IMG/VR virus record: IMGVR_UViG_3300020567_000066
Location: 7,121 to 71,120 of that record
DNA length: 64,000 nt
Reading direction: 5' to 3' (one strand)
Source: a virus
Lineage: Duplodnaviria > Caudoviricetes
Numbering within the stretch: the first letter of the stretch is position 1; the number at the start of each line of letters is the position of its first letter. Shown piece by piece: positions 4,847 through 15,240 of this stretch. A program made the translations under genes and the position numbers. The notes beneath the pieces are model-generated. The model saw only the letters and a program-made list of their open reading frames with translations, was not told the DNA's origin and did not search any database.

Positions 4847-5308
4847 TCAAGTATCAAGAAATGTAACAATGTGAAGACTGCACCACTTTCCATACATTCT
4901 TTTCAAATGATCATATAGCTTCTTACCAACATCGTCAAGATCATCATACTTTGCTCTAAAGTATCTCTTGTTTTTGCTATCCCATCCAGACCAACCTGTG
5001 GCTCCTAGAAAAATACTAGCAACTAATGGAATGCTAGTATGCTTTTTGATAATGTCCTCTTCATCCTGAGAATTGTATTTGGGGAAGAAGTATGTTGCTC
5101 TCTTTCCAGTGTCAGAACCAACATAGGCCTCACAAACAACATCATAGCATCCAGTCCAGCAACAAACTGGAATGCCATACTCATCTTCATTTGGAACAAC
5201 AAAGAGCTTTACAAACAATCCACCTTCTTTGGTGTCTCTATACTTCCTACTGTTCACTGGAAAGTGAACATAGCCAGACTGATAGGGAAGTCTACGAACA
5301 GTAATCAT
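4847..5308 (-). CDS. hypothetical protein
   Basis: ORF with SD GAGGTG before ATG 5308. Confidence 0.65.
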   Translation of the reverse strand: MITVRRLPYQSGYVHFPVNSRKYRDTKEGGLFVKLFVVPNEDEYGIPVCCWTGCYDVVCEAYVGSDTGKRATYFFPKYNSQDEEDIIKKHTSIPLVASIFLGATGWSGWDSKNKRYFRAKYDDLDDVGKKLYDHLKRMYGKWCSLHIVTFLDT

Positions 5309-5324
5309 ATCAATCACCTCTTTG

Positions 5325-5951
5325 TCATTTGAAAACAATTCCTGCCAAAGCAACAAATACCTTCAATTCCCCATCACTTGGTTCCTTCTCTAATCCATCT
5401 GTGAAGAAAAGAGCATACTTGCTATTAGGAACAACAAACATTGGCTTACCAACAGACTTAACAACCCTTTTGTTTCCAGTACCTAAATCATAAATATCAT
5501 ACATAAAATCAACAATGTGTTCCCAATATCCAAGATCAAACATCCTATCATTATCAAAGGCTATCATATGCTTATGAAAATTGATGTAAATATTGTGCAT
5601 ATTATCAAGTGGTAGATGATTTCCTTTTTCTATCTCCTTCAACCAATTGTGAATAACTTTGTTTTTATGCTCATTTATAACAGTCTTGCTATTATCAACA
5701 ACCCTACAAGCACCACCATATTCAATAACAGGATACCAAGATTCTTCATTAACAACAGAATAAACATTGTCCATTGTTGCTAAGACAAATACAGAATTAG
5801 ATAAATACAAAAAACTATAGTTGTTAGTGTAAACCCTATCATCACTAGCAAAGTCTTTTTTAGACCATCTAGCCTTCTTTCTAAGGCTTTTGTCTAATTT
5901 GAACAACTTCTTTGCAACATGACTCTTCACTGGTGACAAAATAGTGTCCAT
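5325..5951 (-). CDS. hypothetical protein
   Basis: 208-aa ORF, SD GGAGG. Confidence 0.65.
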   Translation of the reverse strand: MDTILSPVKSHVAKKLFKLDKSLRKKARWSKKDFASDDRVYTNNYSFLYLSNSVFVLATMDNVYSVVNEESWYPVIEYGGACRVVDNSKTVINEHKNKVIHNWLKEIEKGNHLPLDNMHNIYINFHKHMIAFDNDRMFDLGYWEHIVDFMYDIYDLGTGNKRVVKSVGKPMFVVPNSKYALFFTDGLEKEPSDGELKVFVALAGIVFK

Positions 5952-6210
5952 AACTCAATCCTCCTCTGTCAACATGGTTAACACACTATACTGTTCATCT
6001 ACTGGATTGTCATATTGACACTTCCTAAACCCAATTAGTTTAAGAATCTCCAGAACATGAGAAGTGCTCTCTCATTTCATCCACTCTAATAGTTACTGGG
6101 GAGAAGAAACATACACACCCTTCTTGGCAAGTTCTACAGAGCATCTAGTACACAATTAAGTCTTTGATTCACCAGAATCATTTCTATAATAAACCTTTCT
6201 ATCACCTAGT

Positions 6211-6239
6211 ATATTACCTCCTAGCGGGTGAGAAGTCAA
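6211..6239 (-). promoter_or_regulatory. sigma70-type promoter
   Basis: Minus strand TTGACT (6239-6234), 17 bp, TAATAT (6216-6211), with an A/T-tract UP-like element upstream. Confidence 0.55.
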
Positions 6240-6293
6240 CAGGAAAATTCCATTTTCATCATTTTTTCATATTTCCCCTCCCCCGCTGAACAG

Positions 6294-6986
6294 CTAGACA
6301 TCGGTGAAAATAACCGTGCTCTCATACTTGTACACCAAGTCAAATAGCTCCCCATAAGCTCCTAAATCAACCCTCTGCCGCCAAAATAGCACAGCCCTAT
6401 GAACCGGCAACTCCGCCCCCACAGCATGACGTACCCTAACCTTGACACACCCTCCCACCCTATCGTAAAGATACCGCTCAATACCTCCCCAAAAGCCAAC
6501 AAAGCCGCTCCCCTCAACCCTCAGTAAACCACCTACCGGCTTCAACCCCACCTCCTCACCGTCCACTACCCTGCCCTCGTCATAATACTCCACCCTGTCC
6601 AATAACTTCCGCCACACCAACACCCTGCCGTCATAAAGCGTATAATCAGGGATAACCTGAAAGCCTAGCCGCGGACTCCTACACTTCGTCAACTCCAGGC
6701 CCAAACAGTATAAGTCGATCTCGTTCCCCCTCCTAAACCGACAAGCTCTCATAACCGGACCAGTATCACTACGTAAATTGACCCCAAACACCGGAAACGA
6801 CCCGAATGCGGTCATGTACCCCTTGCTCCTATCCGAAAACGGCGGGATAGGCGGCCCCTTATACTTGGTCGAATAAACAAACGTCCAAAAACGATCCGGT
6901 ACCGCCCTCTCCAATAAACCCACCACCTCAAACGGCACCCCTCCAGCAACTCCCTCCGCCTCCCTCACCACCAAGAAACTGTTCAT
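6294..6986 (-). CDS. hypothetical protein (GC-rich island)
   Basis: 230-aa ORF, SD GGAGG, about 55% GC with many CG dinucleotides. Confidence 0.65.
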   Translation of the reverse strand: MNSFLVVREAEGVAGGVPFEVVGLLERAVPDRFWTFVYSTKYKGPPIPPFSDRSKGYMTAFGSFPVFGVNLRSDTGPVMRACRFRRGNEIDLYCLGLELTKCRSPRLGFQVIPDYTLYDGRVLVWRKLLDRVEYYDEGRVVDGEEVGLKPVGGLLRVEGSGFVGFWGGIERYLYDRVGGCVKVRVRHAVGAELPVHRAVLFWRQRVDLGAYGELFDLVYKYESTVIFTDV

Positions 6987-7039
6987 ACCACCACCTCCCT
7001 GTCCCAGGGAAAATTACAACTCAGTAAACCCTCCATCCG

Positions 7040-7069
7040 CTTCACCAAATCTTCACAAAATCTTCACAT
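7040..7069. repeat. three CTTCAC direct repeats at 11-bp period, operator-like
   Basis: cttcaccaaat-cttcacaaaat-cttcacat between the tRNA-Ile 3' end and the next gene. Confidence 0.5.
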
Positions 7070-7076
7070 TACCTAC

Positions 7077-7150
7077 TAGTCCGGCCGGGACTCGAACCCA
7101 GAACCTTCGGCTTATAAGGCCGACGCTCTCGCCTGTTGAGCTACCGGACC
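7077..7150 (-). tRNA. tRNA-Ile, anticodon UAU (no encoded CCA)
   Basis: Reverse complement GGTCCGGTAGCTCAACAGGCGAGAGCGTCGGC-CTTATAA-GCCGAAGGTTCTGGGTTCGAGTCCCGGCCGGACTA; full cloverleaf, GTTCGAG T-loop, discriminator A. Confidence 0.92.
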
Positions 7151-7152
7151 GA

Positions 7153-7926
7153 TTATCGTAAACCAAATACGACTTCGTGCACACCAGCCGGAACGGTTCC
7201 CACAACCTCACCGCTCTCATTCCCTATACGGATTGTCGTAGGATACGGGCTGTTGAGCAAAACGTATCTCATTTTACCATTACCAAGCGGTCGCCATTGA
7301 ATAAACTGCATGTAGTCGTTGACAAGGCAGTAAATGTTCCTCGCCTTCACCCATCTAGGTCGCCGCTTTGGGCTGTTCCAAGAGTTCATTGCCAACTCGT
7401 CAAACTCGCCAACCTTTATAATCCCAATGTCGCCGTCGCTTCCAATACGTTCGTAGTCAACAGAATAGGATCGTTGGTAGGTAATCTCCATGTCCGCACC
7501 ATAGGACCCACCCTCAGCATGCTTCACAAAAAATGCGCTGCGAAACTTGCCGCCGTTCTCATTCCATGCGATGAACCCTGTCCCAAATTGGTCAGCAAGC
7601 TTGCATAGCTCTCCATAGCTGAACCCCGGCTCTCCGCTCTTGCTTTCATACATCGCAACGAGCCGCACAAGACCGGTACCGTACAGGCTCAAGGCTCCCC
7701 TGCCAGAAATCAGAATGGTATCCTTACCGGATAGGAAGTGGGCCTTGGGATAATCGATTACCGTCATAGGCACATGCTCAAAGTCATAGCGCGTCCAGTA
7801 ATGCTCGTAGTACAAGCCATTTACCGTTATGGCTCTGTAGTAGCAGTAATAAGGGCCGCTCCCTCCCACGATCACAGCCGGTTTCCAGGTTGGCAGCTTG
7901 TAGTTTACTGTCAGAACGTTACCCAT
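7153..7926 (-). CDS. hypothetical protein (GC-rich island)
   Basis: 257-aa ORF, SD AGGAG; stop lies 2 bp before the tRNA-Ile. Confidence 0.65.
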   Translation of the reverse strand: MGNVLTVNYKLPTWKPAVIVGGSGPYYCYYRAITVNGLYYEHYWTRYDFEHVPMTVIDYPKAHFLSGKDTILISGRGALSLYGTGLVRLVAMYESKSGEPGFSYGELCKLADQFGTGFIAWNENGGKFRSAFFVKHAEGGSYGADMEITYQRSYSVDYERIGSDGDIGIIKVGEFDELAMNSWNSPKRRPRWVKARNIYCLVNDYMQFIQWRPLGNGKMRYVLLNSPYPTTIRIGNESGEVVGTVPAGVHEVVFGLR

Positions 7927-7995: not shown

Positions 7996-8274
7996 TCATC
8001 CTTGGCAATTCTCCACAATAATCTTTACTTCTTCTTCATCCCAATAGTCTTTCCATCTTTGAAGCATTGTTTGAAGTTGTTCTTTAGTAACCTCAAACAA
8101 CACCTCATGTTTCTCCAGGCTAAAGCTCACTATACCAAGATCATCAAAGTAATCATAGAAATACCCATCGTGAAACATCGCTACTCTCATGCCCTGTTCA
8201 CCATCACGATGAACAAGGTAAAAATTACCAGGAGTAAGATTTACCCTATTCATATTCTCTCCTTTCATATTCAA
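7996..8274 (-). CDS. hypothetical protein
   Basis: 92-aa ORF overlapping the upstream gene by 4 bp. Confidence 0.6.
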   Translation of the reverse strand: MNMKGENMNRVNLTPGNFYLVHRDGEQGMRVAMFHDGYFYDYFDDLGIVSFSLEKHEVLFEVTKEQLQTMLQRWKDYWDEEEVKIIVENCQG

Positions 8275-8909
8275 ATCCTGTAATGCTTTTTAATCTCTTC
8301 AATCTTCTTCTCATGATAGGCAATCAATTCTTCTCCAGTGGGAGGCTCCCAAACATGTTCTCCCTCTTCCACCTTGATTCTACGACCTTCTGGTTCATCA
8401 GAGTAGACAAAGTCTAGAATCCTATTCATTTGCTGTATCTTTGCTTCATATTTTTCCTTCAGCTTCCTGTTTTCTTCCTCTAGTTGACGCATCCCAAGTT
8501 CAACAGTATTTTTGGCAACATAACTGTCAGGATGCCCAACATAAACTTCGTACCATTCAATCCTTGCCCCTTCAGGCAATTCAGTAGCACCTTCTGGTAA
8601 ACGTGGACCAATGTACTGACCAACAAAGATTCTGTCAAGATATTCTGCTTTTACAGATACACGATTGCACTCAACATCATAATCCAAAATCTTGCTGTAC
8701 AATTTAGCTGTGTTTTCATGTCCAACACAACTAACTACCTCAAAATCAAGCCCAATCCATTTAATGTAGTTGGCAGGATCATTGATCTTTTTAACCAGAA
8801 GGACAGCATCACCAGGAATCATACTGAGTGAGAAAGCATTGGAAATATAAACCTTGGAACGGACAACCTTCAGTGGAATGCCAAGGCAGTACTCTTGTGA
8901 GTTACTCAT
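8271..8909 (-). CDS. acrIII-1: AcrIII-1 family (DUF1874/STIV B116-like) cA4 ring nuclease anti-CRISPR with C-terminal coiled-coil extension
   Basis: KVYISNAFSLSMI...SCVGHENT...CNRVSVKAEYLDRIFVGQYIGPRLPEG reproduces the recalled SIRV1 gp29 pattern (KVYLANAFSINM, SIGH, KNRVEIKLE, QRLEEG); SD GGAGG before ATG 8909. Confidence 0.85.
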   Translation of the reverse strand: MSNSQEYCLGIPLKVVRSKVYISNAFSLSMIPGDAVLLVKKINDPANYIKWIGLDFEVVSCVGHENTAKLYSKILDYDVECNRVSVKAEYLDRIFVGQYIGPRLPEGATELPEGARIEWYEVYVGHPDSYVAKNTVELGMRQLEEENRKLKEKYEAKIQQMNRILDFVYSDEPEGRRIKVEEGEHVWEPPTGEELIAYHEKKIEEIKKHYRI

Positions 8910-8946
8910 AGTGACATCCTCCCTTAGGTAAACAAAAGAACCAAAC

Positions 8947-9321
8947 TCAGTTATCCACACAGTTTGAACTATTGCCACAATCTTGCATAACAATCTTCAG
9001 ATAACTGGCGAGAGAGAAGTCAATCACACAATTACAGAGAAACCTAAAAACATTTGGAATATTACCTGTTTTGTAAATCTCTCTTACTTTTGAATCAGAA
9101 GTAATGTAAAAGAGTCTATAAATAATTGGATTGCTTCCCTCCTTTACAAGCATCAAATCCTTCCCAAGCACACTAACCTTGTAGACCAGCCTATTAATAT
9201 CCTTTTCCTCACAGTAATACACAGATAGCAAACCATCAAGATTGGTAGCAATGATGGAAATCAGCCTCTCTTCTTCAGCATCAAACTTGACAAGATTCAG
9301 AGTGTCATTCTGTGGCATCAT
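8947..9321 (-). CDS. hypothetical protein, likely paralog of the 1861-2532 domains
   Basis: VKFDAEEERLISII ~ ISFTTKEKYIISSF; IYRLFY ~ CYRLLF. Confidence 0.55.
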   Translation of the reverse strand: MMPQNDTLNLVKFDAEEERLISIIATNLDGLLSVYYCEEKDINRLVYKVSVLGKDLMLVKEGSNPIIYRLFYITSDSKVREIYKTGNIPNVFRFLCNCVIDFSLASYLKIVMQDCGNSSNCVDN

Positions 9322-9470
9322 AACTAACTCCTGTTCACTCCCGCATTCTCTTGCGTTGCCTACGTCAGCAACGTCACCATTAATAACCTATGGCAACCAA
9401 CCGATATAACGGGAAAATAGAAAAATGAAATGATTTTTCATAAGTCTTTGGAGAAGATGGTGATAAAGAA

Positions 9471-9544
9471 TGCTCCTGGTAGGACTCGAACCTACAACCA
9501 GTTGCTTAGAAGGCAACTGCTCTATCCATTTGAGCTACAGGAGC
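9471..9544 (-). tRNA. tRNA-Arg, anticodon UCU (no encoded CCA)
   Basis: Reverse complement GCTCCTGTAGCTCAAATGGATAGAGCAGTTGC-CTTCTAA-GCAACTGGTTGTAGGTTCGAGTCCTACCAGGAGCA; full cloverleaf. Confidence 0.95.
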
Positions 9545-9551
9545 AGAACTG

Positions 9552-9905: not shown

Positions 9906-10490
9906 TCAAACCATTCCCTTGATTATAGAGTCAATGTAAAAGACTCCCCTTTCATTATCTTTTGGTGAAGGAAAAAGACACATAAATGCAGACTCATTCT
10001 TACAAAGATCATAAGACTTTAGCTTTCCAAAAGTAGAGCAAAATGCATTGATTCCTGTCTCTATTGGCAAATAGATGTCATAAATATCCCCCTTTATGAT
10101 TACATCATCCAATTGTGTTGGCACAATAAACCCTATAAATGGCCTAAAGTAATCATTTAGGTCAATTGTTGTCTTATAGATGAAGACAAGTTGCTTCACA
10201 AAGACAATCTCCCCATACTCCCTCTGATCATCAGAAGTCAGTACAGCAAATGGTAGACGAATCTTGTTTGTATTCTGCAAATATTCCATAAGAGTCATAT
10301 TCTCTTTATACTCTTTATCCTGTCTCATGTAGATTTCCTTGAAAAGGATCATAGTGTTATCTGGTCTAAACTCAACAGGGAAGACACAAAGAGAGACAGA
10401 ATTACCTTTGATTGGCAATCCCTTTCTGTTGAAGTAATCAACAATACCAACCTCTTTCTCAACACTATCCAATACCTTGTGTTTATTCAT
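9906..10490 (-). CDS. hypothetical protein
   Basis: 194-aa ORF coupled to the primase-helicase by a 4-bp overlap. Confidence 0.65.
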   Translation of the reverse strand: MNKHKVLDSVEKEVGIVDYFNRKGLPIKGNSVSLCVFPVEFRPDNTMILFKEIYMRQDKEYKENMTLMEYLQNTNKIRLPFAVLTSDDQREYGEIVFVKQLVFIYKTTIDLNDYFRPFIGFIVPTQLDDVIIKGDIYDIYLPIETGINAFCSTFGKLKSYDLCKNESAFMCLFPSPKDNERGVFYIDSIIKGMV

Positions 10491-12196
10491 ATTTCTTCTA
10501 CCTCCTCAGATTCATGAATAAACTGTTCTATCTGCTCATCAGAAATAACATTGTCTGATTCTACAAGTTCTTCACCTATAGAATCAGTAATGTACATATC
10601 ATAAGTGTCAAATAAGAATATCTTATTGTCTGAAGGATAATTTGTTTTTATTACAGAAAGATAAGATTGATTCTCTTCATTCTTGTCTACTCTCAAAACT
10701 ACTCTTGATATACCTGTAAAACCAATACTTCCTAATCCCTGTTGAACTTGATTACCATAACTACTGCCATTCCCATTACCATTCCCATTCCCCTTAGTCT
10801 TTCTCAAGTGTCTAACAACAATTGTGGTCATACCCCTACTTCTACACAAACCAACAAAGAATCCAAGTATCTTTCTGATTTCAACATCTGAATACATTAT
10901 ATTAGAGTCTCTCAAGTAAGATGAGATTGGATCAATAATTACAACACGTACATCATGTCTTTCAATCACTCCTTTTATCTTGTTTATATCATTAGGAAAT
11001 ACTGGAAAGTCATTGTAATACAAAAACTTATTAGGATCAGCTTTCATCTGCTTGATTCTGGTCTTTATGGAGGAGACTGTATCCTCATGAGAGATGATCA
11101 ATACTTTTCCATTATCATACCCAGTAACACCAAGACAATTGTCTAGAGAACATATAAACTTATTTCCAGAAACAAAAGCATAAGACAAGGCTAAGGAAAT
11201 GAAACTCTTTCCACAACCAGGATTTCCTTCAATTAATATCAACTCATTCCTTGGTATCATATTTTCTACAAGCCATATATTACCATCTAGTTCCTTGAAA
11301 TCAGAAATACTCAATACTTCATCTTTGTATAACCAACTGAAGAAGGATTCTAGTGAAACAGAAATATTATTGTCATAAATATGAACAAGAAGATCATCAA
11401 TCTTTTCCTTTTGTATTCCAGTTTTCTTAACCTTCTCCCAGTCAAAGTAATAAATATTCTTTATCTCTGTATAATTCACCAATTCTTTGAGTTCTGTTAA
11501 CACATCAACATCAGAGTCGTAGACTAGAAAGACAATATCTTCTGGTTTGAATAAATTACTCTTATAGCAACTTATTACATCCTTTTCAAGAGTCAATTTA
11601 GATTGACTACCAATAACATTACCAATAATATTCATTCTATCAAACAAAATAGATGTAACAATAGACTTTAAATATCCTTCAATGAAATAAAAAACATTAC
11701 TACCATCACTTCTTACTAATGATGGTAAAGCTGGAGAAAGATTATAATACCTTCCATTTGGACTATCTATTAGTCTCAACTGATAATGATTTGAACCATC
11801 TTGTGAATTAATGGGAATGATAAGACAGTAAGACTGTTGATTATTCTTATCAAATATTCCTGGTTTTATACCATACTTCTTAGCTTCACTCTCTGTTATT
11901 CCCCTTCTAGATAACTCATTCAAGTGTTGAGAGTGAAAGACATAAGCTAATGTTAATGTACCTTTATCATAATTCTTTTCCTTATTCATCCATTTCCTCC
12001 TATCAGGAAAACTAATATCTTCTCCTACCAAATGAGAAATCTTCTCCTCAATCACCTCCTTGTATTCTAATACTTCTGACATAGAACACCCAGCAAAACA
12101 TTTACATTTGACAATCTTCCCATCAGAAACACCAACAGACAAAGAAGGATGAACATCATGGTGAGCAGGACATCTAATGGTGTAATACCTGATCAT
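10487..12196 (-). CDS. primase-helicase: Zn-binding domain, TOPRIM and RepA/AAA_25-type helicase
   Basis: CPAHHDVHPSLSV..CKCFAGC; IEGYLKS and VYDSD; Walker A EGNPGCGKS; Walker B VVIIDPIS; VRHLRK. Confidence 0.85.
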   Translation of the reverse strand: MIRYYTIRCPAHHDVHPSLSVGVSDGKIVKCKCFAGCSMSEVLEYKEVIEEKISHLVGEDISFPDRRKWMNKEKNYDKGTLTLAYVFHSQHLNELSRRGITESEAKKYGIKPGIFDKNNQQSYCLIIPINSQDGSNHYQLRLIDSPNGRYYNLSPALPSLVRSDGSNVFYFIEGYLKSIVTSILFDRMNIIGNVIGSQSKLTLEKDVISCYKSNLFKPEDIVFLVYDSDVDVLTELKELVNYTEIKNIYYFDWEKVKKTGIQKEKIDDLLVHIYDNNISVSLESFFSWLYKDEVLSISDFKELDGNIWLVENMIPRNELILIEGNPGCGKSFISLALSYAFVSGNKFICSLDNCLGVTGYDNGKVLIISHEDTVSSIKTRIKQMKADPNKFLYYNDFPVFPNDINKIKGVIERHDVRVVIIDPISSYLRDSNIMYSDVEIRKILGFFVGLCRSRGMTTIVVRHLRKTKGNGNGNGNGSSYGNQVQQGLGSIGFTGISRVVLRVDKNEENQSYLSVIKTNYPSDNKIFLFDTYDMYITDSIGEELVESDNVISDEQIEQFIHESEEVEEI

Positions 12197-12291
12197 ATAT
12201 ACTCACCACCAGGTTAGGCAGTAATGCTGCCATATTAACCCCTTTCCCAGCAAAAAGGATAACAGAAAAATGGAAATTACCTCTTCCAATT

Positions 12292-12325
12292 CCCCATTCC
12301 CAATTCCCCCATCACCCAATAACCC
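12292..12325 (-). other. G-quadruplex motif on the minus strand
   Basis: Five C-tracts of 3 or more on the plus strand, i.e. GGG-TTATT-GGG-TGAT-GGGGG-AATT-GGG-AAT-GGGG on the minus strand. Confidence 0.55.
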
Positions 12326-12340
12326 AGGATACCCATAATT

Positions 12341-12420
12341 TTTGATTATTTCGCTTATAATCGATTTTCCTACCAAAAGTATATCATTACCCTCCCCAAC
12401 CCAAAATAATCGATTATACG
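12341..12420. repeat. left paired-arm element TATAATCGATT-41 bp-AATCGATTATA
   Basis: Arms at 12356-12366 and 12408-12418, preceded by TTTGATTATTT; second copy at 14321-14403. Confidence 0.8.
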
Positions 12421-12507
12421 CAATCCTATGAGGAAATAAAGGCATTCTCATGGGATTGAGGAAGGAAGAGTGCACCATTAACCATTCGCCATTCGCTGCT
12501 TTCCACC

Positions 12508-12556
12508 GCTCGCTGCTCGCTGCTCACCGCTCACTGCTCACTGCTCGCTGCTCGCC
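12508..12556. repeat. tandem heptamer GCTC(G/A)C(T/C), seven copies
   Basis: gctcgct gctcgct gctcacc gctcact gctcact gctcgct gctcgcc. Confidence 0.85.
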
Positions 12557-12659
12557 ATCAACCATCTCAATTCCCCATTTCACCAGAAAAATAGAAATCT
12601 TGTTAGATTTTACCCCTTTCAGGGGTTAATATAGGGTGAGAGAGAAGGGAAGTAGAAGG

Positions 12660-14280
12660 TAAGAGAGTAATTAATGGGTTAATTAACATAGAATTAATTT
12701 CACTGAATTAATTACATTGAATTAATTCACCTAATTAATCATACACTATTAAGTGTGTTAATAACTTAATTGTATGTGATTAAGTCAATGTAATTAAATG
12801 AAATATTATTCACCATAATTAAAGTCACTGTAATTAATGTAGTGTAAATGTAATGTAATATTATCATATGGTGTTAATACACTAATATACAGTGTAATGT
12901 AATTGAATTGTTAATGTATGGGAAAAAGTATATGCTTATTCTATACTAGTGTATGATATAGTTCATTTAATTGGGTTAATTACATTGACTTTAATTCATA
13001 TGATTTAATTTCACCTAATGAAGTTTTAATTCAATGTATATGAGATATATTCTCTAATCTAGTGAAATATACTCTTAATAGACTTATTCTATTTGGTGAA
13101 TAATATTCACATTAATTTGCACTAACATTAAGAGTATTCTAATATATTATTTATACTGTACACTTTAAGTCTATGTACTATTAACATAGTGTTAATATTG
13201 TGTTAATATTATGTGAGGAAAAGAATATATTCTCTTTACATTAGGTGAATTAATCTAATGTAATTGAAAAGAAATATATTTCTTCTATTCAATTAAATTC
13301 AATTGATATTAATTCATATGATTCTAATGTCAATGTAATTAATTGCACCATAATATGGTGTTAACACACTATATATTCTAGTGTAATGTAATTAAACTAA
13401 TTTATGGTGAGAGAAGATATACTCTTAATTACATTGACTTAATTTATGTGATTTAATTCACCTAGTTTAATTCACCTAATTGAATAGAATTAACACTATT
13501 CTTTCACCCACAATATTAACCCAATTAATAGAAGATATATTGCACTCTAATTAAGTGTTCTATTCAATGTAATTAATTCAATTAGATGAATATCATATAC
13601 ATTAGGTGATTAATACACTTAATAGTCTATTCACATTAATTTCATGTAATTAATTCACCAACTATATGATTCACCTAATAGAGAGTATATTACACTTACA
13701 TTAGATGTATTAATTCACCATAATTAAGTGTATTAATCATATGAAATAAAATAATGTTATACTCCTAAAGTATATGTTAACACTCAATTAAATAATCTAG
13801 TGTATTACATTAAGTGTATGAGAGAAGAATATGATTAACACTATTACTACTCACCTAGTGTTAATAGACTAATGTCTTCTCACATTAATCTCTTCTCATT
13901 AATCTTCTCCCATTAATTTCACCTAATAGAGTATATTAGATTAATCTAGTGTATAGACTATACTAAGTGTATTAGTCTATTAACCCCTAATTAGGGTGAT
14001 AATATTCACCTAATGAATTAACACCTAGTGTAATTAAGGTGCATTAACACTTAGTGTAATTAACACTTAATTACAGTGAAATTAATAGAGTATTAAACTA
14101 AGTGTATTAATCTACTAGGTGAATTAATCTACTAGAGTATATAATACACTTAATTATGGTGCAATTTAATTACATTGAAGAAGATATATACTCTAAAGTA
14201 TATGAAAGAACATATACTCTTAATCATATGAAAAGAATATATATTCCTAAAGTATATGAAAAGTATATGAATAATACAAC
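12660..14280. repeat. AT-rich mosaic of dispersed short repeats and palindromes
   Basis: TTCACCTAAT 6 forward + 1 reverse; TAATTACATTGA 4 forward + 3 reverse; no CG seen; sampled 60-bp lines 15-22% GC. Confidence 0.8.
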
Positions 14281-14320
14281 ATTCCTTGGAAACATTAGAT
14301 TCAGTTGTTACCCTCTATTT

Positions 14321-14403
14321 TTTGATTATTTGCTCTATAATCGATTTTGTGGTCTTGGGAGTATCTTTCATCATTTTGGATAGAGATAATCGATTATAAG
14401 CGA
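14321..14403. repeat. right paired-arm element TATAATCGATT-41 bp-AATCGATTATA
   Basis: Arms at 14336-14346 and 14388-14398, same spacing as the left element, offset 1980 bp. Confidence 0.8.
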
Positions 14404-14461
14404 TTTTAGAAGGAAATAAGGGTGTTATTGGGTGATGAGTGGTGAAGGGTGAGTGGTTATT

Positions 14462-14489
14462 GGGGAGAAGGGTGAGTGGGGAATTGGGG
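14462..14489 (+). other. G-quadruplex motif on the plus strand
   Basis: GGGG-AGAA-GGG-TGAGT-GGGG-AATT-GGGG. Confidence 0.55.
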
Positions 14490-14643
14490 AGTGGTGAGTG
14501 GGCAGTAGTGATTAGCTGTTAATATGCCCTTCTTCTCCTCTTGGTCATAAAAATCTTCCAAAATTCTGTTATCCAATCTTTTCCCCAGGTGTTTAATAAT
14601 GCGACCATAGAATAGTTATGGCAATTACTCACTCGAAAGGAGA

Positions 14644-15240
14644 ATGATCATGCCTTCTGTTTACAAAATCCCAAGGAAGAACAATAATCAAAGTTCTTCT
14701 ACTACTCAGGAGAATAATTCTCCTAAGCAATCTAATGATCAATCTAAGAGAAAGTTTTATCCAAAGAAATATCAGAGTAATAGACAAGAGAATAATAGTG
14801 TCAGAAACTCTATTGTTCTTCTAGGAACATATAAAGTATCTTCTGATGGTAATGTTTATATCTCAAAGAATGGGAAAGGATATATAGTTCTTCTCATTTA
14901 TGGGAAGTATAATAATAGAATAAACATTAGTTATTTCTTTAATCAGAAACAATTAGATAAGATTTTCTATAACATCAGGAATAATTGGAAAATAAATCTT
15001 GATGAAGTAGAAGGTAGTAATGATTTAGAGAAACTTAAGAATTATGTGAAAAGTAAAATGTCTATTGATATTAGTAGTAATAGTGAAGAAGAAATACTCT
15101 TAAGATCTTTATCTTCTCTTCTTACTATTCCAAGATATTGTGATATAATGATCAAGGAAGATAATAAAGGAAAATTCTTATACTTTTGTCATATCAAGGA
15201 AAAGAAATCTTTTTCCTTCAATAAGGGTAATAAGAAGTAA
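14644..15240 (+). CDS. hypothetical protein, paralog of 15260-15757; possibly ssDNA-binding (DUF669-like)
   Basis: N/Q/S/K-rich N-terminus, then DGNVYISKNGKGYIVLLIYGKYN; SD AAAGGAG. Confidence 0.45.
   Translation: MIMPSVYKIPRKNNNQSSSTTQENNSPKQSNDQSKRKFYPKKYQSNRQENNSVRNSIVLLGTYKVSSDGNVYISKNGKGYIVLLIYGKYNNRINISYFFNQKQLDKIFYNIRNNWKINLDEVEGSNDLEKLKNYVKSKMSIDISSNSEEEILLRSLSSLLTIPRYCDIMIKEDNKGKFLYFCHIKEKKSFSFNKGNKK

Follow-up and report, generated by a model that had tools for sequence, protein, structure and literature searches.

The 64,000-nt stretch of DNA analyzed here, which we call the window, spans bases 7121-71120 of one virus contig of 71,120 bp (IMG/VR record IMGVR_UViG_3300020567_000066), and all feature coordinates below are in window numbering. 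Toward either end of the largest gene-free gap in this tailed-phage genome lies a G-rich tract carrying a G-quadruplex (G4) motif. Our analysis points to a composite explanation, to which we assign a probability of about 0.55: the tracts are arrays of a known heptamer class, they are housed in control arms, duplicated and inverted, of two divergent replication operons, and any effect that they have is most likely exerted in cis on outward transcription. Rather than being stand-alone elements, both G4 motifs are the parts of imperfect heptamer tandem arrays that are richest in G. An earlier note on this DNA had singled out the same pair as outward-facing motifs on opposite strands that bracket the locus, share a core and are otherwise rare in an AT-rich genome, and had proposed symmetric G4/R-loop-assisted priming or fork control.

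We scanned both strands of the whole 71,120-bp genome with a canonical G4 regular expression, requiring four runs of at least three G (G3+) joined by loops of N1-7. Only two matches emerged, one on the minus strand (12292-12334) and one on the plus strand (14462-14489), and GGGGAATTGGG was present in both G tracts. Both motifs fall in the sole large gene-free gap (12197-14643), which at 2,447 nt is the largest non-coding stretch of a genome that is ∼92% coding, the next being 426 nt. When scored with G4Hunter, the two tracts gave the two top peaks in 71 kb, 2.08 on the left and 1.92 on the right, and the third-ranked value (1.60) came from within a GC-rich, foreign-looking gene. Across 100 first-order Markov simulations, a mean of 0.03 canonical motifs per genome was expected, versus the two observed. 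These scans bore out the description in the earlier note of a rare, core-sharing pair on opposite strands, with no equally strong motif elsewhere. The tracts themselves are extreme in composition, with 45 G and one C in 85 nt on the right, and 25 C and two G in 52 nt on the left as read on the plus strand. Mononucleotide shuffles of the tracts yielded a canonical motif in 37% (right) and 5.6% (left) of cases. Given this local G composition, a canonical motif is not very surprising there. The non-random feature is the G-rich, C-free heptamer array and not the four-run motif as such.

Tandem Repeats Finder (TRF) called a period of 7 at all four arrays of the locus (12286-12308, 12482-12496, 12508-12555 and 14432-14501) and no further comparable heptamer array in the 64-kb window. 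The left outer G-rich array (12283-12334, minus strand) holds the left G4 motif, and the right outer G-rich array (14426-14510, plus strand) holds the right one. In each case, the strand rich in G is also the sense strand of the operon next to it. The left inner arrays (12470-12590) consist of two CCATTCG units (12482-12496) and seven GCTCGCT units (12508-12555; 6.9 copies by TRF); they are C-rich on the plus strand, lack G or C runs, and have no G4 or i-motif potential. Together with GCTCGCT, the units seen at the locus were GGGGAAT, GGGGAGT, GGTGAGT and GCGAATG.

A dyad-symmetric module of ∼105 nt adjoins each G tract. In the left module (12339-12445), TATAATCGATT at 12356-12366 on the plus strand faces TATAATCGATT at 12408-12418 on the minus strand, and in the right module (14319-14425) the same pair recurs at 14336-14346 (plus) and 14388-14398 (minus). 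The facing 11-mers are 52 nt apart, these four sites are the only exact copies in 64 kb, and the inner copy forms a perfect 12-bp palindrome, ATAATCGATTAT. Of the nine ATCGAT sites that the genome contains, four fall within the modules, despite an observed-to-expected ratio (O/E) for TCGA of 0.19. On the gene side of the outer arrays are leader or promoter-proximal segments, at 12197-12282 (minus) and 14511-14649 (plus), which share TTCTGTTATCC as an exact 11-mer on opposite strands. On the left, TTCTGTTATCC lies at 12257-12267 with a TAATAT box ∼19 nt further, and on the right it lies at 14564-14574 and is accompanied by a TAATAA box and a ribosome-binding site. Local alignment of the left element with the right element of a relative in which the right side is complete scored 120 in inverted orientation versus 80 in direct orientation, and the inverted alignment spans the outer array, the module and the inner array. 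With each arm taken in the direction of its neighboring gene, the blocks that they have in common reach the start codons. Each arm is ∼350-400 nt long, the two are ∼54% identical to each other, and their CpG O/E values are 0.74 and 0.43.

Judged by this alignment, the arms are diverged inverted copies of one control arm placed upstream of divergent replication operons. The opposite-strand, outward-facing geometry of the G4 motifs would then follow from the inversion of the arms. The interpretation offered in the earlier note is supported in part: the mirror-image outward arrangement and its position at an origin-candidate locus held up, but the symmetry traces to the inverted arms and the repeat class of the tracts is not origin-specific. 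A reading of the palindromes as att, parS or tel sites was set aside, there being no integrase, partition or protelomerase gene among the annotated open reading frames (ORFs). Searches against Rfam gave no match at E ≤ 1 within 12000-14800, and in relative L001 no match except a chance-level hairpin-ribozyme hit. Two short ORFs at the locus were also rejected as genes. One (12203-12478, minus strand), which is annotated as a gene in relatives, crosses the array and the module, and a 1-nt indel shifts its frame in L004; the other, of 63-75 aa at the right end of the AT-rich field, is encoded by a 26-nt tandem repeat.

Relatives of the phage were found by exact-sequence look-up of the flanking proteins, in contigs from at least a dozen public runs, and all of those recovered were ∼99% identical to the window. 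The phage is present in SRR27730017/25/28/47/49, SRR6986817, SRR23854656, SRR34265294/96, SRR35364754, DRR082460 and the HiFi run DRR290133. Substitutions were evenly spread among these strains, and indels of 14-76 nt were concentrated in the arrays. The left canonical motif was present in 12 of 12 genomes. The right outer canonical motif was found in only three of 13 (the window, L150 and L151), the array in the other 10 having loops of 10-14 nt and a G4Hunter score of still 1.72, so that the right flank scored at least 1.72 in all 13. In the window, an expansion of 22-24 nt in the units of the right outer array creates its canonical G4, and the left inner GCTCGCT array is ∼73 nt longer than in relatives (12492-12577; indel blocks 12492-12550 and 12564-12577). 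Most relatives carry an additional G-rich array, located inward of the right module, with a G4Hunter score of up to 2.12 and one 10-nt loop. This right inner array lies within a segment of ∼466-520 nt that has no counterpart in the window strain, the deletion having occurred between two copies of TACCCTCTAT. The modules were almost invariant, differing among strains by one single-nucleotide polymorphism, one 1-nt spacer indel and one change of ATCGAT to ATTGAT. What appears to be kept on each flank is a G-rich heptamer array of fixed polarity and not one precise four-run motif. We also considered that the right outer G4 was gained because the right inner array was lost, and rejected this idea since the expanded outer array and the inner array coexist in L150.

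Two details of the strain comparison stand apart from the arrays. In the second box of the right module of L147, ATAATCGATTAT is changed to ATAATTGATTAT (CpG to TpG), the sole change in any TATAATCGATT box. The segment missing from the window corresponds to L003:3390-3860, whose minus strand matches the window orientation, with the insertion point at ∼14309-14318. It has a ∼240-nt core of 44-50% GC, versus 24% around it, that folds significantly better than shuffled sequences on both strands (z of −3.4 and −4.0) and had no match in Rfam. This core may be a structured RNA or DNA element, and an apparently dispensable one.

G-rich heptamers of this kind are well represented in bacteria. Scanning a single genome from each prokaryotic species for exact (GGGGAAT)3 gave at least 120 stretches, 80 of them listed. 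Among the 80 listed, 57 were from cyanobacteria, seven from Xanthomonadales/Lysobacterales and two from Planctomycetota, and the cyanobacterial genera among the matches listed included Nostoc, Microcoleus, Stigonema, Tolypothrix, Symploca, Rivularia, Planktothrix and others. The bacterial (GGGGAAT)n arrays, for instance in Nostoc, Tolypothrix, Microcoleus, Xanthomonadales and planctomycetes, mix the variant units GGCGAAT, GGGTAAT, GGCTAAT and GGGGAAT just as the phage arrays are mosaics. Among 2.9 million viral contigs, nine contained exact (GGGGAAT)3, none of them related to this phage. The related heptamers GGGAATC of Xanthomonas and GGGGA(C/T)T of Nostoc form K+-dependent G4 structures by circular dichroism; these repeats prefer four units, are mostly intergenic, vary strongly in length between close relatives, are under-represented between divergent ORFs, and have no known function (Rehm et al. 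2015, PMC4692102). In Nostoc, contiguous heptamer repeats near promoters or start codons are reported in a preprint to influence the expression of recF and recO (bioRxiv 10.1101/2022.06.06.494920).

The phage arrays resemble these repeats, and the STRR (short, tandemly repeated) sequences of heterocystous cyanobacteria, in most respects. They have a 7-nt tandem unit, seen both by TRF and as heptad mosaics in relatives, with a G3-4 run and at least four units; they are intergenic near gene starts; their length and sequence vary between close relatives; and inverted pairs, as here, sometimes occur in the bacterial class. At least four G3+ runs at heptamer spacing were found on the left in all 12 genomes, in the right outer array in the three of 13 noted above, and, with one 10-nt loop, in the right inner array of most relatives. 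The phage units do not match the consensus GGGNATC/GGGGAYT. Since identical (GGGGAAT)n is abundant in the same bacterial groups, the phage units are taken as a sister variant of the class. Unlike the bacterial repeats, the phage arrays are found in a phage genome at one locus instead of being dispersed, lie between divergent genes where the bacterial class is under-represented, and are arranged around a palindromic module in two inverted arms. Upstream of the ORF it is the sense strand that is rich in G in the phage, in contrast to the antisense preference of the bacterial repeats upstream of ORFs. Taken together, the phage tracts are best classed as members, though with variant units, of a known, dispersed heptamer repeat class that is not origin-specific.

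Between the arms lies an AT-rich repeat field (12600-14300; 1.7 kb, 24% GC, no CpG) that is a candidate origin or DNA unwinding element, or a protein-binding field. Its vocabulary, used in both orientations, includes TTAATT, TTAATTAC, GTGTTAAT and TTCACCTA, along with mini-arrays of 14, 17 and 26 nt. TTAATT occurs 50 times in the field versus 43 times in the 68 kb outside it, and several 8-mers show a 60-220-fold enrichment. The field is thus an AT-rich stretch with repeated words beside a helicase gene, as iteron origins are. The cumulative GC-skew minimum lies at the locus, in the same place as the switch in gene orientation, and for this reason coding-strand GC skew was compared gene by gene. 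For genes pointing away from the locus, it was +0.25 in the left arm of the genome (third positions, +0.23) and +0.14 in the right arm (third positions, +0.085), and for the eight right-arm genes pointing toward the locus it was +0.04 (third positions, −0.06). This small orientation-independent component is consistent with rightward replication over the right arm, which is supportive and not decisive. Lying in the largest non-coding gap, AT-rich and repeat-dense, between replication operons, adjoining a primase-helicase gene and coinciding with the skew minimum, the 1.7-kb field is the best candidate for the phage origin.

It is a large, AT-rich, repeat-dense non-coding region that adjoins a primase-helicase gene and carries words in both orientations, and in this it is like the iteron-type origins found next to an initiator or helicase gene, such as lambda ori, P1 oriR and P4 ori/crr (with the alpha primase-helicase). 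The TTCACC-containing words of the field are reminiscent of P4 type I iterons, which is a lead only. Unlike iteron origins, the phage field is far larger (1.7 kb), has several mini-arrays instead of one iteron family, and is flanked by inverted arms with heptamer arrays. As a separate observation, GATC occurs 181 times in the genome and is absent from the 2,447-nt gap, where ∼6 sites would be expected (Poisson P ∼0.003). A GATC-free gap is unlike Dam-regulated origins, and the phage encodes a D12-class (Dam-like) methyltransferase.

In the composite explanation, the arms would be the upstream control regions of the primase-helicase gene leftward and of gp196, YqaJ and DnaE rightward, and would bracket the candidate origin field. 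Arrays flank the module of each arm on both sides, except that the right arm of the window has lost its inner array. They would act in cis on outward transcription, possibly by serving as an element upstream of the promoter, or by forming a G-rich leader that promotes RNA:DNA hybrids or a G4 on the displaced strand. Slippage that altered the length of an array, and hence its strength, could in turn produce expression variants. Two candidate promoter elements were seen in the arms: a gene-proximal TTATCC-N19-TAATAT/A element is conserved in both, and the modules hold perfect TATAAT boxes directed through the outer arrays. Several observations weigh against this explanation. A scan for the sigma-70 pattern found 19 sites versus 20 expected, which is chance level in AT-rich DNA. 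When RNA folding was computed in a context of 150-400 nt, RNAfold favored hairpins in which the G runs pair with downstream pyrimidine tracts. Gene orientation accounts for most of the GC skew that helps to mark the field as an origin. Since all strains are ∼99% identical, the constancy of the left motif carries little weight, and no distant relative with the locus was found among viral contigs (searched by protein and module pattern), in a 5.8-billion-protein search, or in metagenome contigs searched with a two-sequence profile; beyond the close strains, these searches gave one protein at 28% identity. Lastly, the arrays could be neutral slippage products.

This last possibility is the alternative that survives best, although we still regard it as unlikely. 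It holds that slippage-made heptamers are tolerated in the sole sizeable non-coding stretch, that the symmetry arises from duplication and inversion of the arm, and that the strand bias arises from a sense-strand G excess throughout the genome. The extreme indel polymorphism among ∼99% identical strains is what would be expected of such microsatellites, as is the drifting mosaic of units. Coding-strand skew is indeed G-rich genome-wide, tract shuffles return a canonical motif in 6-37% of cases, and the class has no known function despite study. On the other hand, the rest of this 92% coding genome is free of such arrays, and the arms, only ∼54% identical, nevertheless carry arrays at all four module-flanking positions. 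CpG-containing units survive even though CpG O/E for the genome is 0.20, and G richness is kept on each flank in all strains.

We consider it improbable that the tracts prime replication. According to that proposal, outward transcripts would leave an RNA:DNA hybrid or hybrid G4 that primes the leading strand or opens the DNA for the primase-helicase, giving symmetric, bidirectional initiation at the flanks of the field. The geometry would allow it: outward transcription on either side would have the G-rich strand as its non-template strand, the tracts adjoin the 24% GC field and the primase-helicase gene, the TATAAT boxes of the modules point through the outer arrays, and every strain has a G4Hunter score of at least 1.7 on each flank. 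RNAfold with G-quadruplex energies predicted G4 structures for the isolated cores (−16.0 versus −11.4 and −16.5 versus −4.7 kcal/mol), and related heptamer consensus sequences fold as G4 in K+. ColE1 RNA II and phage T4 oriF/oriG are transcription-primed origins. [quoted passage not shown] At CSB II, a hybrid G4 or persistent R-loop has been proposed to turn the transcript into a primer (PMC3488243, PMC4176368), which provides a precedent.

However, CSB II is a conserved block, and the phage instead has two mirrored, hypervariable tracts. No conserved G-tract block of the kind seen at transcription-primed origins was found, as the right canonical motif occurs in three of 13 strains only, and the right inner array, which has a G4Hunter score of up to 2.12, is deleted from the window strain together with ∼520 nt around it. 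Sister (GCTCGCT)n arrays in the same arms lack G runs, and the repeat class occurs scattered through host-type genomes, unconnected with origins. The G-rich zones extend for only 52 and 85 nt and are not followed by a downstream G-rich elongation zone, the promoter scan is at chance level, and the origin is itself a candidate only. Priming by G4 or R-loop is geometrically possible, and nothing here favors it over simpler readings.

A more ambitious version makes the arrays working parts of a new kind of phage origin, in which transcription from the modules through the C-free, G-rich strands would form R-loops or hybrid quadruplexes that load the primase-helicase or prime symmetrically, with slippage tuning the firing of the origin. 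We hold this to be a long shot. If true, it would give the widespread bacterial heptamer-repeat class its first demonstrated function. Least probable of all, and very doubtful in our judgment, is that the arrays are heptad iterons bound by a phage protein, such as the primase-helicase or an initiator on single-stranded DNA, or polar fork barriers in which G4s on the template of inward-moving forks insulate the central field from incoming replication or transcription, since, although period-7 arrays do surround a conserved palindromic module in each arm and their polarity is inverted between the two sides as in Ter-like barriers, the units differ widely (GGGGAAT, GCGAATG, GGTGAGT and GCTCGCT), unlike the iterons of one protein, copy number and even presence vary between viable-looking strains, and neither family searches nor the structure model of gp196 offered a candidate binder.

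The locus places a known repeat class in an unusually informative setting. G-rich heptamers are abundant in cyanobacteria, Xanthomonas and several other phyla and fold into quadruplexes in vitro; this compact phage has kept its arrays at one locus, in mirror image around a palindromic module, at the heads of replication operons and beside a likely origin. Natural alleles are already at hand, namely three of the right outer array, presence and absence of the right inner array, and long and short forms of the left inner array, and they make this a tractable system for effects on transcription, R-loops and replication. Should the arrays do nothing, the locus would still document a repeat-generating process of the host operating on a phage genome. 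The repeat type also hints at the host lineage, being commonest in filamentous cyanobacteria and also found in planctomycetes and others. To look for the host, a gene from the GC-rich island and a TIGR02996-like protein were compared with samples of 200-300 genomes from each of Planctomycetota and Cyanobacteriota; neither matched informatively, and an Atlas search was likewise uninformative. The hot-spring metagenome DRR290133 is one sample that carries the phage.

The genome has a GC content of 34.8% and encodes, among packaging and structural proteins, a large terminase, a Mu-type portal and a protein with a weak match to a major head protein. Its replication genes comprise a DnaE-type polymerase, an AAA_25 primase-helicase, a YqaJ exonuclease and two DNA methyltransferases, and its nucleotide-metabolism genes comprise ThyX, ribonucleotide reductase and a dCTP deaminase-like protein. 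The primase-helicase gene (10487-12196, minus strand; 569 aa) is the first gene of the leftward operon. Its product matches Pfam AAA_25 (E = 2.4e-22) and the PHROG 239 DNA primase/helicase family (E = 6e-19), with an N-terminal zinc-finger-like CPxH...C motif followed by an AAA_25/RepA-type ATPase domain. The first gene of the rightward operon, gp196 (14650-15240, plus strand; 196 aa), is followed by those for the YqaJ exonuclease, the D12 methyltransferase and the DnaE-type polymerase. Domain and family searches gave no family match for gp196, remote-similarity scores were at noise level, and the AlphaFold model, with a pLDDT of 39, was uninformative. We also set aside an N4-like virion RNA polymerase or hairpin promoters, as no polymerase domain was found in the large proteins and no RNA-polymerase gene was recognized in the genome.

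Several minor observations concern the remainder of the genome. Inside the primase-helicase gene, a hexamer repeat, (CCATTC)n at 10751-10798, encodes a (Gly-Asn)n linker and is the only coding site with a G4Hunter score above 1.5 outside the GC-rich island. CpG is depleted genome-wide (O/E 0.20), with O/E values of 0.05 for CGCG and 0.19 for TCGA. A block at ∼4900-7900 with a CpG O/E of 0.74 and 49-50% GC resembles recent foreign DNA. The phage encodes tRNA-Ile(UAU) at 7077-7150 and tRNA-Arg(UCU) at 9470-9545, which fit its AT-rich codon usage. A 240-aa protein (8271-8993) contains a STIV B116-like domain of the AcrIII-1 ring-nuclease family, and the versions in relatives are 212 and 303 aa long. 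Lastly, in some relatives, IS605 OrfB/TnpB (Cas12f-like) genes are inserted in the left or right operon (L003:9312-10058, L142:4830-5930 and L146:5064-6011), and the window carries none; a mobile element thus appears to be active in this phage population.

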